Notes: generated from the letters alone by a model not told the origin. 64,000 nucleotides of DNA from an uncultured Bacteroidales bacterium (GCA_963757935.1 CAVWSZ010000008.1:119889-183888); one strand, 5' to 3'; positions 8 through 62,276 are shown, numbered from the stretch's first letter. A program made the numbers and translations.

Positions 8-1285
8 ATGGATAATTTTATTGTTTCCGCCCGCAAATACAGGCCTGCAACATTCGATATGGTAGTCGGACAGGAGACCATTACAACAACCCTGAAGAAC
101 GCAATAAAGAACAACCATCTTGCACAGGCCTATCTTTTCTGCGGGCCCCGCGGCGTGGGCAAGACAACCTGTGCCCGCATATTTGCCAAGACTATCAACT
201 GTGCCAGCCTGGGACCTAACTTTGAAGCATGTGACAAATGTGAGTCGTGCCTCTCTTTCAATTCCCAGGTATCGTTTAATATACACGAGCTCGACGGCGC
301 CTCAAACAACGGCGTCGATGATATCCGCAACCTGACCGACCAGGTGAGAATACCACCGCAGATCGGCAGATACAGTGTCTATATAATCGATGAAGTTCAT
401 ATGCTTTCAGCGTCAGCCTTCAACGCTTTCCTGAAGACCCTGGAGGAACCGCCGCCACACGCCATTTTTATACTTGCCACCACTGAGAAACATAAAATCA
501 TTCCGACCATCCTCTCAAGGTGTCAGATTTTTGATTTCAACCGGATCAACGTCGATGATATAGTCAACAGACTTGTCTGGGTTGCCGGAAATGAAGGAGT
601 CAAGGCAGAACATGAAGCACTGCATGTTATCGCAACAAAGGCTGACGGTGCCCTGCGCGACGCACTTTCAATATTCGACCAGATAGTAAGTTTCAGCGGC
701 AGGGAGATTAAATATGCCGACGTCATCGGGAACCTCAATGTTCTCGACTATGAATACTTCTTTAAAATTGTTGACGCCGCCGTTGTTGGAGATATCCCCG
801 CAGTCCTGATCACTTATAATGAGATACTGAGCAAGGGATTTGACGGTTACAATTTCATGGCGGGACTGAACAATCATCTTCGTGACCTCCTCGTAAGCCG
901 TGATGAGGCCACTGTAAAACTTCTCGAAACCTCTCCGTCTGTAAGGCAGCACTACAGGGAGCAGGCAGTGAAATCATCACTTCCGTTCCTTTACAATGCC
1001 CTTGAGATAGGCTCACAGTGCATGCTAAACTTCAAATCGAGCAAGAATCAGCGGCTGCACGTCGAGCTTGCCCTGTTGCGCATGTGCCAGCTTTCAGGGG
1101 AGACAGTTGAGATACAGTCAAAAAAAAAAGCTGAACAGCCTCTCTCAGGTGAATATGAAGAATTAAAGCCATCCCCTCTGCCTTCACAAGGGACCCCTCT
1201 GACACGGAAACCTCAGCCTCAGCCTCAACCTCAGCCTCAGCCTCAACCTCAACCTCAGTTCTCAGCCTTCAAAACCGACTTCTGA
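8..1285 (+). CDS. dnaX: DNA polymerase III subunit gamma/tau, N-terminal ATPase to domain III plus linker. The frame is broken near 1259.
   Basis: Walker A GPRGVGKTT, Zn module CDKCESC, IIDEVHML, SRCQIFDF. Ends in a (PQ)8 linker then a premature TGA. The C-terminal domain continues in the +1 frame. Confidence 0.9.
   Translation: MDNFIVSARKYRPATFDMVVGQETITTTLKNAIKNNHLAQAYLFCGPRGVGKTTCARIFAKTINCASLGPNFEACDKCESCLSFNSQVSFNIHELDGASNNGVDDIRNLTDQVRIPPQIGRYSVYIIDEVHMLSASAFNAFLKTLEEPPPHAIFILATTEKHKIIPTILSRCQIFDFNRINVDDIVNRLVWVAGNEGVKAEHEALHVIATKADGALRDALSIFDQIVSFSGREIKYADVIGNLNVLDYEYFFKIVDAAVVGDIPAVLITYNEILSKGFDGYNFMAGLNNHLRDLLVSRDEATVKLLETSPSVRQHYREQAVKSSLPFLYNALEIGSQCMLNFKSSKNQRLHVELALLRMCQLSGETVEIQSKKKAEQPLSGEYEELKPSPLPSQGTPLTRKPQPQPQPQPQPQPQPQFSAFKTDF
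1211..1258 (+). repeat. Tandem hexamer microsatellite (CCTCAG/CCTCAA) x8 encoding (PQ)8 inside dnaX
   Basis: Read directly: cctcag cctcag cctcaa cctcag cctcag cctcaa cctcaa cctcag. The same CTCARC unit recurs at 37435..37488. Confidence 0.95.
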
Positions 1286-1316
1286 AGACGGGAAAAAGAT
1301 CTCAATAAAAAACCTT

Positions 1317-1754
1317 ATGGCTGAGGCCAGACCCTCAGCCGGAACTGTCAACGAACCTTCGGAAACTGTAGTCAAACCGGTACCCGACAGCGAGTTCACT
1401 CCTGAGGAATTGCTCGAATCATGGAATTCGTTTGCAAATACTGTTAAAGAGGAGAGTCCCCGTATTTCAATAACACTCTTATCGGTTACCCCCGGAATTC
1501 TTCCGGATAAATCAATCGAACTCAAACTTGATAATTCAGCCCTGAAGGAGACTTTTGACCACAATTACAAGTCAAAACTTGAGAACCATCTCAGGGAATC
1601 GCTCCGGAATGCCGGAATAAAAATTACAACCATTGTCGAATCAACCGAAAGAGGCGACATTCTCTATTCGGTGGACCAGAAGTTCAACCATCTTGCCAGT
1701 AAAAATCCGGCACTTAAGGACCTGAAAAAGACCTTCAATCTCGATTTTGAATGA
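1317..1754 (+). CDS. dnaX: DnaX C-terminal domain fragment. The frame is open upstream to about 1200.
   Basis: It follows the dnaX N-fragment in the +1 frame, which reads ...SSQPSKPTSEDGKKISIKNLMAE upstream of the listed ATG. The size and position fit the tau C-terminal region of Bacteroidetes DnaX. Confidence 0.7.
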   Translation: MAEARPSAGTVNEPSETVVKPVPDSEFTPEELLESWNSFANTVKEESPRISITLLSVTPGILPDKSIELKLDNSALKETFDHNYKSKLENHLRESLRNAGIKITTIVESTERGDILYSVDQKFNHLASKNPALKDLKKTFNLDFE

Positions 1755-1772: not shown

Positions 1773-2060
1773 GTGAAAAACCCCGGAAAAAGTCTTACGG
1801 AGCCTCAGCAAAGCAGTCAGGGAGACGCTGGAAAGAGCCTGCCAAAGGCTCAGAAACGCGATTCCACAGGCCTGGTTACAGGGGGCATCGCCCATGATTT
1901 AAATACTATCCTGACCCTTATCTATGGCTACAGTGAACTGGCACTCGAGGGACTGGACCCGGCCGGTGAGAATTACGCTAACATTAAGAAGATCATTCAG
2001 TCAGCCGACAGGGCAAAGGCTATTACCGCACAGTTGCTTTGCCCCTGGCACGGAGGCTGA
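1773..2060 (+). CDS. Sensor-less histidine kinase, N-terminal fragment with the HisKA H-box. Frameshift near 2040.
   Basis: GTG start. H-box GGIAHDLNTILTLIYGYSELAL lies only about 35 aa from the N-terminus. Continues in the +1 frame. Confidence 0.8.
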   Translation: MKNPGKSLTEPQQSSQGDAGKSLPKAQKRDSTGLVTGGIAHDLNTILTLIYGYSELALEGLDPAGENYANIKKIIQSADRAKAITAQLLCPWHGG

Positions 2061-2562
2061 ACAGGTGCGAATGAAGGTGCCTGTCAGGGATGTCCTCCGG
2101 GAAACCCTGGAGTTCCTGCGTCCGCTGGTGACAGACAGGATCATTTTCAGGGAAAAGATCCTGACCCCCGAGGTGTATGTATCTGCTGACCCCATTCAGC
2201 TTTACAGGGTGTTTATAAACCTGACCCGCAATGCAATTCAGGCTATGGAAGAAAGTGGCGGAACTCTTACAGTGAAACTGGATACCAGAAAGGGCGTTGA
2301 AGTGAGAAACCTTCCGGAAGGCAAACAGGCGGCCGGTGCATATGCACTTATCTGTTTTGAAGATACGGGTCACGGCATGGATGAGACAACTACCGCCAGG
2401 ATGTTTGAACCTTTCTTCACTGCAGGGAACCAAAACAGGGGCACAGGCCTCGGTCTTTCAGTAGTTTACGGCATTATCTCCGCGATTGGCGGAACAATAA
2501 GCGTGACAACGAAAAAGGGCAGGGGAACTGTAATAGAGCTTCTCATCCCATCTCTTTGCTGA
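1924..2562 (+). CDS. Histidine kinase, C-terminal HATPase_c fragment. Homology starts near 2040.
   Basis: N-box NLTRNAIQAM, G1 FEDTGHGMD, G2 GTGLGLSVVYGII. Confidence 0.85.
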   Translation: MATVNWHSRDWTRPVRITLTLRRSFSQPTGQRLLPHSCFAPGTEAEQVRMKVPVRDVLRETLEFLRPLVTDRIIFREKILTPEVYVSADPIQLYRVFINLTRNAIQAMEESGGTLTVKLDTRKGVEVRNLPEGKQAAGAYALICFEDTGHGMDETTTARMFEPFFTAGNQNRGTGLGLSVVYGIISAIGGTISVTTKKGRGTVIELLIPSLC

Positions 2563-3062: not shown

Positions 3063-3338
3063 ATGCTTACAAAAAACGTTGAAGCAATCTGCAACAGGCA
3101 GATCGAAAGAGAAGGATACTCATCAAACCTGTACCTCGCAATGGCATCATGGGCAGAGAACAAAGGCCTTCCGGGCATTGCAGACTGGCTGTACGCCCAG
3201 GCTGAAGAAGAAAAAATGCACATGCTCAAGTTCATAAAATATGTAAATGAAAGAGGAGGCCATGCAGTTATTCCGGCTTTTGAAAAACCGCCTTTAAAGT
3301 TTAAGGGTGCAGAAGAGATGTTCGCGGAGGTGTCTTAA
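3063..3338 (+). CDS. ftnA: Ferritin, N-terminal fragment. +1 insertion near 3333.
   Basis: QIEREGYSSNLYLAMASW...EEEKMHMLKF ferroxidase-centre helices. Confidence 0.85.
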   Translation: MLTKNVEAICNRQIEREGYSSNLYLAMASWAENKGLPGIADWLYAQAEEEKMHMLKFIKYVNERGGHAVIPAFEKPPLKFKGAEEMFAEVS

Positions 3339-3573
3339 ACACGAGCAGTTTGTCAGTGCCAGCATAAATGAGGTTCTGGCAGCTGCGATGAAGGAAAATG
3401 ATTTTTCAACCGCAAACTGGGTACAGTGGTTTGTCACTGAACAGATTGAGGAAGAATCCAATGTACGCCTTATCCTTGATAAGATCGCTCTTGCCGGAGC
3501 AGCCGGGCTATATTTCCTTGACAGGGATATTATGGGCCTCAGGGCAGCACCTGCAGCACCTGCACAGGCATAG
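3307..3573 (+). CDS. ftnA: Ferritin, C-terminal fragment
   Basis: LKHEQFVSASINEVL...FVTEQIEEE continues the four-helix bundle in the +1 frame. Confidence 0.85.
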   Translation: MQKRCSRRCLKHEQFVSASINEVLAAAMKENDFSTANWVQWFVTEQIEEESNVRLILDKIALAGAAGLYFLDRDIMGLRAAPAAPAQA

Positions 3574-15843: not shown

Positions 15844-16302
15844 TCAGATGAGAACAATATTCTCCTTGATTGTGTTCCCGTCATCATCTATTCCGTAGAG
15901 TCTGATACCTACGCTGCAGGTAGCAGTGGAAGCAATGTCCAGAATGGGAGAGACAGCCTCCCTGACATCTTCCTCACCCATGGAGTCATATTCTTCAATA
16001 TCGAAATAGAGATGGATGAACAGGATATGTTCAGATCTTTTGATTTTGCAGAGGACTTTCAGAATTTTAGCCATCCATAAGGCCGAGGAAGTATTGAAAT
16101 AGTCAATGTTATATTTGAGATTCGTGTTTTCTGCCGGATTCTTTGCATACTCACTTGCCCACTTATGAATAGGCTCAAAAAAAGATGTTGCATTTTCAGG
16201 CAGAGATTTGCCTGTAAAGCCCAGTACTCCCGATGATGCCACAAGATCTACCTGTGGCGTTTTGGTGGTCGCCTGAATCCTGATATCCTGTAAATTACCC
16301 AT
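15844..16302 (-). CDS. DUF1987 / SiaC-like protein
   Basis: TKTPQVDL...GKSLPENATSFFEPIHKW...YFNTSSALWMAKILKVL matches the SiaC/DUF1987 pattern from memory. Confidence 0.65.
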   Translation of the reverse strand: MGNLQDIRIQATTKTPQVDLVASSGVLGFTGKSLPENATSFFEPIHKWASEYAKNPAENTNLKYNIDYFNTSSALWMAKILKVLCKIKRSEHILFIHLYFDIEEYDSMGEEDVREAVSPILDIASTATCSVGIRLYGIDDDGNTIKENIVLI

Positions 16303-16555
16303 AATATAACAGTTCCTTCCCTGAATGTTTTATGTCACTCTGACGTTGAATAAAGGTAATCCATTATTATATGATCTTATTTAGCCTTCGTCAAAAAAAA
16401 AGGTATTATTATCAATTTTTTTTATCGTTTCGTCCTATCGCACAGTCATTAAATGCATAGTGTGTGGAGAGTGTCTTGAGTGCCTGTTGTGACTAAAGTA
16501 TTTTAGGCACTCCAAACTCCGTTAACTTTAAGTACTTATTAATTGCACTTAATAT

Positions 16556-16581: not shown

Positions 16582-18369
16582 ATGGAAAACCTGCTCAGAA
16601 AGGGAATCAGGGAGGCTCTGTTAAGCCTCTATAAATCGGATGTTCCGGATGAGTCCATCCAGCTGCAGAAAACCAGAAAGGAGTTTTCTGGCGACATGAC
16701 TCTTGTCGTGTTTCCCCTGCTTAAGATTTCACACAGGTCTCCTGAACAGACTGCAAATGATATCGGTGAGTATCTTCTCGTTAACCTTAAGTCTGTCAGT
16801 AGTTTCAATGTCATAAAAGGCTTTCTGAATATTACAGTCGCCCCCCGGGAATGGGCATCCAGGCTCAAAAGTATCAGGACCGCAAATAACTGGGGCTTCA
16901 CTGAGGCCGCTCCCGATGCCGAAGTGATTGTAATTGAATATTCTTCACCCAATACAAATAAACCTCTTCACCTCGGGCATATACGCAACAATCTCCTCGG
17001 TTTTTCACTTTCAAGGCTGACCGCAGCAGCCGGTAAGAAGGTAATCAGAACTAATATTGTGAATGACAGGGGCATTCATATCTGCAAGTCAATGGTTGCC
17101 TGGAAGCTTTTCGGCAATGGGGAGACCCCGGAGAAAAGCGGAAAAAAGGGAGACCACCTCGTTGGGGAATACTATGTCCTCTTTGACAGGAAATACAAGG
17201 AACAGGTGGCAGTTCTTGAAGCGGCAGGATCGACACCTGAGGAAGCCAGGGAAAATGCCGGGCTGATGCTGGCGGCACGGGAGATGCTTCTCAGATGGGA
17301 GGCCGGCGATGCTGAAACATTAAACCTGTGGAAATTGATGAACTCATGGGTCTATGCCGGTTTTGATGTGACCTACAAAGCCCTGGGAGTTGAGTTTGAC
17401 AGGATATACTACGAATCTGAAACCTATAAAACAGGCCGGCAGCTTGTACTTGAAGCCCTTGATTCAGGCCTGCTCTTCAGAAAAGACGACGGCTCGGTAT
17501 GGGTCGACCTTACCGCTGAAAAACTTGACCAGAAATTGCTCCTGAGGTCTGACGGCACTGCGGTCTATATGACGCAGGATCTCGGCACAGCCGTACTGAG
17601 ATACAATGACTTCGGTTTCAGCCGGCACATTTATGTCGTCGGAAATGAACAGAATTATCACTTCCAGGTGCTTGCTCTCGTTTTGCTTAAAATGGGCTAC
17701 CAGTGGGCGAGGGGACTGCATCATTTCTCCTATGGAATGGTCGAACTCCCGGAGGGTAAAATGAAATCCAGGGAAGGAACCGTGGTCGACGCTGATGATC
17801 TGATAGCTGAGATGACTGACACGGCACGGGCAATGTCGCAGGAACTGGGAAAACTTGGCGGTTTCACCGACTCCGAAAAAGAGGATATCTTCAGGAAGAT
17901 AGGCCTGGGCGCTTTGAAATACTTCATTCTCAAGGTAGATCCAAAAAAGAATATGACCTTTAACCCGGCCGAATCAATTGATTTTAACGGCAATACCGGT
18001 CCCTTCATTCAGTATACCTATACCCGTATAAAATCAGTCCTGAATAAGGGGGCCGAAACGGGAATCACACCGGGTGAACCGTCATTTGATGACGTAACGC
18101 CTGATCAGAAGGAAATAAATATTATTAAGCTGTTGAATGATTTTCCGTCTGTGGTCTCAGAAGCGGCGGAGGAACTGAGTCCTGCACTGGTGGCCAATTA
18201 CTGCTATGACCTGTCACGGGAATTCAACCAGTTTTACCATGACCTGCCGATACTCGGGGAAGAAAACCCGGAAAAACGCAATTTCAGGCTTAACCTGACT
18301 GAAATGACAGGTATTATAATTGAAAAAGGACTGTGGCTTCTTGGAATTGAAGCTCCGGAAAGAATGTAA
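16582..18369 (+). CDS. argS: Arginine--tRNA ligase
   Basis: Class I motifs PLHLGHIRN and KMKSREG. 595 aa, intact. Confidence 0.95.
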   Translation: MENLLRKGIREALLSLYKSDVPDESIQLQKTRKEFSGDMTLVVFPLLKISHRSPEQTANDIGEYLLVNLKSVSSFNVIKGFLNITVAPREWASRLKSIRTANNWGFTEAAPDAEVIVIEYSSPNTNKPLHLGHIRNNLLGFSLSRLTAAAGKKVIRTNIVNDRGIHICKSMVAWKLFGNGETPEKSGKKGDHLVGEYYVLFDRKYKEQVAVLEAAGSTPEEARENAGLMLAAREMLLRWEAGDAETLNLWKLMNSWVYAGFDVTYKALGVEFDRIYYESETYKTGRQLVLEALDSGLLFRKDDGSVWVDLTAEKLDQKLLLRSDGTAVYMTQDLGTAVLRYNDFGFSRHIYVVGNEQNYHFQVLALVLLKMGYQWARGLHHFSYGMVELPEGKMKSREGTVVDADDLIAEMTDTARAMSQELGKLGGFTDSEKEDIFRKIGLGALKYFILKVDPKKNMTFNPAESIDFNGNTGPFIQYTYTRIKSVLNKGAETGITPGEPSFDDVTPDQKEINIIKLLNDFPSVVSEAAEELSPALVANYCYDLSREFNQFYHDLPILGEENPEKRNFRLNLTEMTGIIIEKGLWLLGIEAPERM

Positions 18370-62135: not shown

Positions 62136-62203
62136 GGGACTGGGTTGTGCGGAGATGGGTTCGATTTATGCAAATAGAAAAGGCAGCCATTGCGGCTGCC
62201 TTG
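62136..62203 (-). repeat. Copy C: authentic tRNA-Lys downstream flank, including the intrinsic terminator at 62172..62202
   Basis: ggcagcc-attgc-ggctgcc hairpin followed, on the minus strand, by ttttctattt. Confidence 0.8.
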
Positions 62204-62276
62204 TGATCCAGCTGGGGCTCGAACCCAGGACCCCATCCTTAAAAGGGATGTGCTCTACCAGCTGAGCTACTGAATC
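62204..62276 (-). tRNA. tRNA-Lys (anticodon UUU)
   Basis: The reverse complement GATTCAGTAGCTCAGCTGGTAGAGCACATCCCTTTTAAGGATGGGGTCCTGGGTTCGAGCCCCAGCTGGATCA folds as a cloverleaf. The anticodon loop is CTTTTAA. Confidence 0.9.

Follow-up and report, generated by a model that had tools for sequence, protein, structure and literature searches.

A conserved run of ten adenines in dnaX of Bacteroidota as a candidate slippage site for a gamma-like product

The dnaX gene and its adenine run

We have analysed a stretch of 64,000 nucleotides (nt) from an uncultured Bacteroidales bacterium (GCA_963757935.1, CAVWSZ010000008.1:119889-183888), hereafter the window, and have focussed on the dnaX gene at its start, in which a run of ten adenines (A10) is the proposed site of slippage between a long (tau) and a short (gamma-like) product. 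As assembled, the N-terminal frame of dnaX extends from 8 to 1285 on the plus strand, as do all the dnaX features described below, and encodes 425 amino acids (aa), comprising AAA+ domains I-III and then a linker, as recognized from the list of open reading frames (ORFs) and the Pfam families DNA_pol3_delta2, DNAX_ATPase_lid and DNA_pol3_gamma3. The A10 run, at 1120..1129, is the longest homopolymer in the window. It was placed just past domain III by a first-pass annotation made from the sequence, and both the sequence and Pfam agree, with domain III (PF12169) covering residues 243-364. The dnaX-frame codons at 1118..1135 read TCA AAA AAA AAA GCT GAA; the run thus begins in codon 371, its first A being the third base of the TCA codon of Ser371 (1118..1120), and goes on as Lys372-374, encoded by AAA AAA AAA, eight codons past domain III.

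Both shifted frames are closed shortly after the run. In the -1 frame, which is also the frame of an mRNA with one added A, the reading is AAA AGC TGA, that is, the single codon AGC followed by a TGA stop at 1132..1134 (AGC TGA occupying 1129..1134), so that the stop lies one codon after the shift as in Escherichia coli. The predicted product has 375 aa and the C-terminus SKKKS. With one A removed, the reading becomes KLNSLSQVNMKN, with 11 sense codons before a TAA at 1164..1166, and the predicted product has 385 aa and ends in KKKLNSLSQVNMKN. These are the outcomes anticipated by the first-pass annotation, namely one codon and then a stop in one frame, a stop after 11 codons in the other, and a gamma-like protein of ca. 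375-386 aa, a size that the two predicted products match.

Intact relatives indicate what the full-length protein looks like. P0001, which is 98% identical, has 581 aa, and in nearly all of the ca. 120 protein clusters with an identity of 77% or more the protein is encoded by one uninterrupted ORF and has 570-620 aa. The tau-specific C-terminal domain, expected to be the part that binds the polymerase and the helicase, bears only the label DUF8439 (PF28557) in the precomputed annotation of the relatives, and the corresponding region of the window (1203..1751) gave no match in our Pfam scan.

Conservation of the run and of the out-of-frame stops

The first-pass annotation had suggested looking for the run and for the out-of-frame stops in related genomes, and this comparison was strongly positive, the run being kept as nucleotides and the -1-frame TGA being found almost everywhere. 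One genome per GTDB species was scanned, which provided dnaX loci from 80 Bacteroidota species, 48-93% identical in protein sequence, and, with the window, a total of 81 sequences. The sample is composed of Bacteroidales in the broad sense, Sphingobacteriales isolates (Parapedobacter, Desertivirga), Marinifilum, Paludibacter and others, and the cultured carriers in it include Parapedobacter luteus DSM 22899, Desertivirga xinjiangensis and Paradesertivirga mongoliensis. To anchor each locus, domains I-III and the C-terminal part were located by tblastn, and of the A runs in the intervening linker the longest was recorded. A run of at least nine As downstream of domain III was present in 74 of the 81 sequences, window included. 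The longest linker run was A10 in 62 of them, A9 in six, A11 in five and A14 in one, and the other seven had no linker run of nine or more.

The single A14 is found in a Rikenellaceae metagenome-assembled genome (MAG; L035:3065-3078), in which it encodes KKKK plus two bases, tau remains in frame and each of the shifted frames meets a stop within 1-3 codons. Among the loci without a long run, L043 has an A7 followed immediately by a -1-frame TGA (AAC AAA AAA ATG A), an arrangement like that of the E. coli heptamer.

Several observations indicate that the constraint acts on the nucleotides and not on the protein. The A10 is found in two codon phases, as NNA AAA AAA AAA in 35 loci (phase 2) and as NAA AAA AAA AAN in 27 (phase 1), and the residues that the run encodes differ accordingly (SKKK, PKKK, LKKK, EKKN, EKKK and others). 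In phase 2 the run starts at the wobble position of one of eight codons (TCA, CCA, TTA, GTA, GCA, CTA, ACA and ATA), which specify seven amino acids. As a control we used an ungapped 362-codon alignment of the N-terminal part from 70 species, where not one of 130 invariant amino-acid columns had a single codon in all species, and the invariant lysine columns were merely 44-73% AAA. Nor are runs of this length common in the surroundings, with only four A or T runs of length 10 outside the linker in 465 kb of the same loci. The flanks of the run are highly variable, so that in the alignment an isolated conserved A10-[G/T][C/T]TGA stands out. It is from the codon phase, the synonymous-codon control, the background of A/T runs and the variable flanks, taken together, that we infer a constraint at the nucleotide level.

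The stops are conserved along with the run. A -1-frame stop at most one codon after the run was found in 72% of the loci, versus 17% when control positions in these genes were used. Considering the 71 distinct downstream contexts, the median distance to the -1-frame stop was 1 codon versus 8 at the control positions (Mann-Whitney p ca. 1e-20, a value that is approximate through shared ancestry), and 66 of the 71 stops were TGA. The +1-frame stop was also close, with a median of 4 versus 13 codons (p ca. 1e-10), and both shifted frames were closed within 12 codons in 93% of the contexts versus 32% at control positions. The TGA is kept while the zero-frame codons that overlap it change: GCT, GTT or TCT is followed by GAA, GAG, GAT or GAC (i.e., Ala, Val or Ser and then Glu or Asp), giving the conserved pattern NNT GAN after the run, and other lineages have AAT GAC, CCT GAT or G CCT GA at this place.

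These data bear on the possibility that there is no recoding here at all, and that we are looking at a conserved Lys-Lys-Lys patch of the linker combined with a preference for AAA, the nearby stops being due to chance or to damage limitation. It is true that KKK is invariant in the 18 closest DnaX proteins, that AAA is the commoner lysine codon (59%) and that a single A10 in the window is not unusual. However, the ten As stay while the amino acids vary by lineage (from SKKK to EKKN, EKKK or LKKK), eight different codons supply the first A while every other conserved residue is written with more than one codon among the species, and the -1-frame TGA survives changes in the overlapping zero-frame amino acids. 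Besides, one synonymous change to AAG could remove a harmful run, yet it is kept in ca. 90% of the species. We thus consider an explanation by protein conservation and codon preference very improbable.

The frame break near 1258 and the reliability of the run length

While the first-pass annotation was accurate about the run and its stops, it missed a break in the reading frame of dnaX further downstream. The zero frame of the window passes through the run and is then broken near 1258, and in tblastn the N-terminal part matches in frame 2 and the C-terminal part in frame 3, as compared to a single frame in 78 of the 80 relatives. Both frame translation and tblastn place the conserved C-terminal domain in the +1 frame, which is open from 1203. 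This tau-specific part (1203..1754, with an ATG at 1317 and the stop at 1752..1754) matches residues 456-581 of P0001 and corresponds to the region carrying PF28557 (DUF8439) in intact relatives. Pairwise alignments with the nearest relatives, L081 and L001, locate the cause in one extra base at 1258..1259 that shifts the tau frame by +1, and that is absent from both. It lies at the 3' end of a CCTCAG hexanucleotide repeat (1211..1268, 9.5 copies by Tandem Repeats Finder) that encodes a Pro-Gln linker. The number of CCTCAG/CCTCAA copies varies among close relatives, with a 6-nt indel relative to L001 and different lengths of the PQ/SQ/EP repeat in the proteins P0001-P0006.

The break is not an isolated case. 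L081 is 97% identical to the window at the nucleotide level and over 2.7 kb there are two length differences, both of them 1-nt insertions in the window; apart from the one near 1258, the other is found near 2046 (ca. 2041..2046) within a histidine kinase gene (1773..2562), which is split by frame into its HisKA and HATPase_c domains in the Pfam scan. In the same way, the ferritin gene at 3063..3573 is split near ca. 3334 into profile positions 5-87 and 87-141, and secA, from 3746 to at least 6636, is in at least four pieces, with breaks at ca. 3919, ca. 4091 and further on (both by Pfam). In the first ca. 7 kb of the window, which is the part covered by our indel survey, four consecutive genes (dnaX, histidine kinase, ferritin and secA) are therefore split by single-base indels relative to the nearest relatives, none of them in long homopolymers. 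As secA and tau are essential, we read these breaks as assembly errors. The insertion near 1258 is most likely one of them, and the indels as a whole most likely mark an error-prone, possibly long-read, assembly. We also considered the 1258 break as a second programmed (+1) site and rejected it, given that the nearest relatives are without the extra base and that the kinase, ferritin and secA genes carry similar single-base breaks. A slip at the A10 cannot rescue the break either, as both shifted frames are closed before 1203.

The length of the A10 itself is not an assembly error, a doubt that the first-pass annotation had raised. The codons upstream and downstream of it match intact relatives in the same frame, and an identical A10 is found in L081, an independent Joint Genome Institute (JGI) metagenome contig that encodes P0001.

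A further alternative is that the run acts at the DNA level, with slipped-strand mispairing toggling tau on and off heritably, or else that it reflects homopolymer errors of the assemblies. Run length does vary among species, from A9 to A14, the window has frame-breaking indels in several genes, and two long-read MAGs combine an A9 with a broken dnaX frame (at the run in one of them, elsewhere in the other). Yet tau being essential, the off state would be lethal, and a single frame joins the N- and C-terminal parts in 78 of the 80 species. Moreover, the A10 of the window is in frame on both sides and the frame break, at ca. 1258, is away from it, while the same run is found in L081, in many short-read assemblies and in isolates such as Parapedobacter luteus DSM 22899. 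We give hardly any credit to a mutational switch or to miscounting as the origin of the conserved run.

The two MAGs in question (L031:3613-3621 and L052:3613-3621) are of the Microflora-Danica type (MFD), and have the N- and C-terminal parts of dnaX in different frames. In L031 the break is at the run, and one added A restores tau; in L052 it is elsewhere in the linker. The L031 run may have been miscounted, or else the layout may truly be reversed there, with gamma in frame. From a practical point of view, A9 and A11 calls in dnaX of long-read MAGs should be treated as suspect and not as signs of pseudogenes, and the dnaX run can serve as a convenient built-in check on how accurately homopolymers are called in Bacteroidota assemblies, as long-read MAGs visibly miscount there.

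Elsewhere in the window, an A9 (16393..16401) and a T8 (16416..16423) are found 15 nt apart between two divergent ORFs, 15844..16302 on the minus strand and 16582..18369 on the plus strand. This gap is probably an AT-rich promoter region.

Slippage in transcription or translation

We propose that the A10 is a selected slippage site from which a gamma-like protein is made beside tau, mainly through transcription and in the manner of Thermus, a reading to which we assign a probability of roughly 0.7 on the basis of the sequence comparisons. The RNA-DNA hybrid of RNA polymerase is 9-10 bp long, and on a T10 template the enzyme would slip when the entire hybrid consists of rA:dT, generating mRNAs with A9, A10, A11 and so on. 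Transcripts with A10, or differing from it by multiples of three, would direct the synthesis of full-length tau (ca. 580 aa in intact relatives). Those with one added A would meet the TGA one codon on and yield the 375-aa product ending in SKKKS, and those one A shorter would end at the TAA after 11 codons, with 385 aa. Both short products would retain domains I-III, the clamp-loader core, and be devoid of the C-terminal tau-specific domain, so that they would be gamma-like. Part of the 375-aa product may also come from ribosomes slipping by -1 on A_AAA_AAA.

There are four reasons to favour transcription. Ten As are conserved, whereas seven would serve for a tandem -1 shift; in length the run is near the 9-10 bp hybrid; both alternative frames are closed; and there is a precedent in Thermus thermophilus (Larsen et al., 2000, as summarised in PMC5009743 and PMC1088944), in which the A9 of dnaX is accompanied by a stop in each non-zero frame and transcriptional slippage results in a tau:gamma ratio of 1:1, together with the finding that runs of nine A or T give rise to mRNAs with extra bases (PMC5009743; PMC1088944).

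The search for RNA signals around the run points in the same direction. No conserved RNA structure was found flanking it when 74 loci were folded (mean z of -0.15 for the 45 nt upstream and -0.42 for the 60 nt downstream), and the RNAalifold consensus of 25 sequences of close relatives contained 0 pairs. In the window, the 60 nt downstream of the run fold with -5.2 kcal/mol (z = +0.8), without a stem-loop of the E. coli type, and a downstream hairpin is present in a few loci (L008, L009 and L029) and is not common to the others. A scan of positions 900..1500 against Rfam, with E values up to 10, retrieved no family, solely meaningless small nucleolar RNA and long non-coding RNA noise. With no conserved structure, the run alone seems to be the signal, as would be expected for transcriptional slippage.

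The 24 nt preceding the run were scanned in the 74 loci (1096..1119 in the window), and a purine-rich GARGAR tract was detected at -8..-3; the window has GGGGAG at 1097..1102, 17 nt 5' of the run. The GARGAR tract may correspond to Glu-Glu codons, to a slippage stimulator or to an interaction involving the anti-Shine-Dalgarno. A published study states that Bacteroidia ribosomes sequester the anti-Shine-Dalgarno and do not recognise Shine-Dalgarno (SD) sequences (PMC10798248). Since no conserved structure was found and SD sequences would not be recognised by these ribosomes, the E. coli set of stimulators appears to be either absent or unusable here.

The main competitor is a translational mechanism, in which a -1 shift of the ribosome on A_AAA_AAA, or its sliding along the poly-A, would lead it, as in E. 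coli, to stop at the TGA one codon further on, transcriptional slippage being minor. Heptamers of the type A_AAA_AAA or A_AAA_AAG are in phase in both codon phases of the run. An in-phase A_AAA_AAG is not found in the window, which has A_AAA_AAA and then GCT, but some phase-1 relatives carry it, the base after the run being G, T or C. The -1-frame TGA is the strongest co-conserved feature and is positioned exactly as in E. coli, SD-like purine tracts are enriched just upstream, and the sole tRNA gene found in the window (62203..62276, minus strand) is a tRNA-Lys(UUU). However, seven As would be enough for such a shift, yet ten are conserved, the first of them at the wobble position of varied codons. 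The early closure of the +1 frame is likewise unneeded for a -1 shift, and neither a downstream stem-loop nor any other conserved structure or Rfam match accompanies the site. To this must be added that SD sequences would be ignored by these ribosomes, and that in E. coli A_AAA_AAA is far less prone to shifting than A_AAA_AAG (PMC5009743). Altogether, a mainly translational origin of the short product seems rather unlikely to us, although it deserves to be kept in mind.

A number of points weigh against the transcriptional slippage that we favour. The support is comparative throughout, and the production of gamma is deduced from it. The A10 contains an in-phase A_AAA_AAA, and ribosome sliding on poly(A) is known, so that -1 frameshifting or sliding would give the same main product. 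SD-like tetramers (GGAG, GAGG and AGGA) are present upstream of the run in 55% of the loci versus 19% in the control, mostly at -8..-4. The run is not obligatory, as ca. 7 of the 80 species are without it (L043, L051, L063, L066, L070, L072 and L077, including a Lentimicrobiaceae MAG). Taken alone, an A10 in 64 kb is unremarkable, at least one being found in 27 of 100 dinucleotide shuffles of the window (G+C 47.6%); its significance comes from the cross-species comparison only. Finally, the copy in the window cannot be read at face value, because the zero frame as assembled does not provide a full-length tau and ends with the TGA at 1283..1285 after 425 aa.

Comparison with known systems and significance

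The system most similar to this one is that of Thermus. Both have a sense-strand run of 9-10 As past the clamp-loader core and a nearby stop in each non-zero frame; tau is a single zero-frame ORF (in 78 of the 80 relatives here, including L081), a conserved RNA stimulator is not apparent, and the short product, predicted in our case, is without the tau C-terminal region. The differences are that the run is A10 instead of A9, that the organisms belong to another phylum, and that the linker and the C-terminal domain (PF28557/DUF8439) look non-homologous. With E. coli dnaX it shares the gene, the position just after domain III and the predicted outcome of one extra codon and then UGA leading to gamma. 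However, E. coli uses A_AAA_AAG, a heptamer ending in G, with an upstream SD stimulator and a downstream stem-loop; the heptamer and the stem-loop are not conserved here, and an SD stimulator would probably be unusable. Of the parallel with both organisms drawn by the first-pass annotation, the Thermus half is apt, since both frames close early, and the E. coli half holds for the outcome, while its heptamer and stem-loop are missing, and probably a usable SD too.

Along similar lines, the supposition that nothing of this kind had been described for Bacteroidota needs to be qualified. The survey of Antonov et al. (2013) yielded 17 dnaX genes of the two-ORF kind from 12 genera, and nine of these genes have ten As: Chlorobium luteolum, C. 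tepidum, Flavobacterium johnsoniae, F. psychrophilum, Coraliomargarita akajimensis, Cytophaga hutchinsonii, Capnocytophaga ochracea, Prosthecochloris and Pelodictyon (PMC3711429). These authors placed the A10 runs in an alignment with the site of Thermus and deduced a transcriptional realignment in which it is tau that requires the slip (PMC3711429, Suppl. Fig. S3). The phylum or superphylum, the gene, the A10, the sequence that follows (of the type GTTGA, GCTTGA or CCTGA) and the inferred mechanism are the same as here. The layout is reversed, though: there the zero frame gives the short product, whereas here, and in 77 of the 80 species, tau is in frame and a slip would lead to the short product. 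The reversed layout, with a zero-frame stop directly after the run, was found neither in the window nor in 79 of the 80 relatives, the only possible case being the A9 of L031. The in-frame form was beyond the reach of the Antonov survey because only genes frameshifted at the DNA level were detectable there, and the screen of Baranov et al. (2005) expressly excluded truncating cases such as dnaX (PMC1088944). Our literature search found no description of an in-frame A10 site in Bacteroidota dnaX, the nearest being Antonov 2013 and a 2016 review; the frameshifting papers on F. johnsoniae concern prfB and not dnaX. The in-frame A10 is, then, a large and well-conserved set within a known kind and not a new kind, and its novelty is modest.

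Caulobacter crescentus provides yet another route, in which gamma derives from partial proteolysis of DnaX by ClpXP (bioRxiv 10.1101/2022.11.10.516041). As proposed here, there are two DnaX forms from one gene, which supports a general usefulness of the short form, but the mechanism is post-translational and involves no nucleotide signal.

The frequency of slippage depends on the nucleotide supply. One could imagine that the run is locked at about the hybrid length over most of the phylum, that the tau:gamma ratio of the replisome is tied to the ATP/GTP pools or to the growth state, and that changes in run length flip the default subunit, although we regard this extension as speculative and quite unlikely. 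If true, one-base changes in run length would link the in-frame layout of Bacteroidales to the reversed one of Flavobacterium and Chlorobi, and few programmed sites of transcriptional slippage in cellular genes would be as widely conserved as this run. For cultured species the proposal predicts a gamma of ca. 375 aa that would be abolished by a synonymous AAG substitution. Most of the sampled Bacteroidota, a phylum with major gut and environmental lineages, keep a Thermus-style poly-A site in dnaX in the in-frame configuration. The question why gamma is made beside tau has stood open for 30 years, and every independent route to gamma adds to the case that the short form matters.

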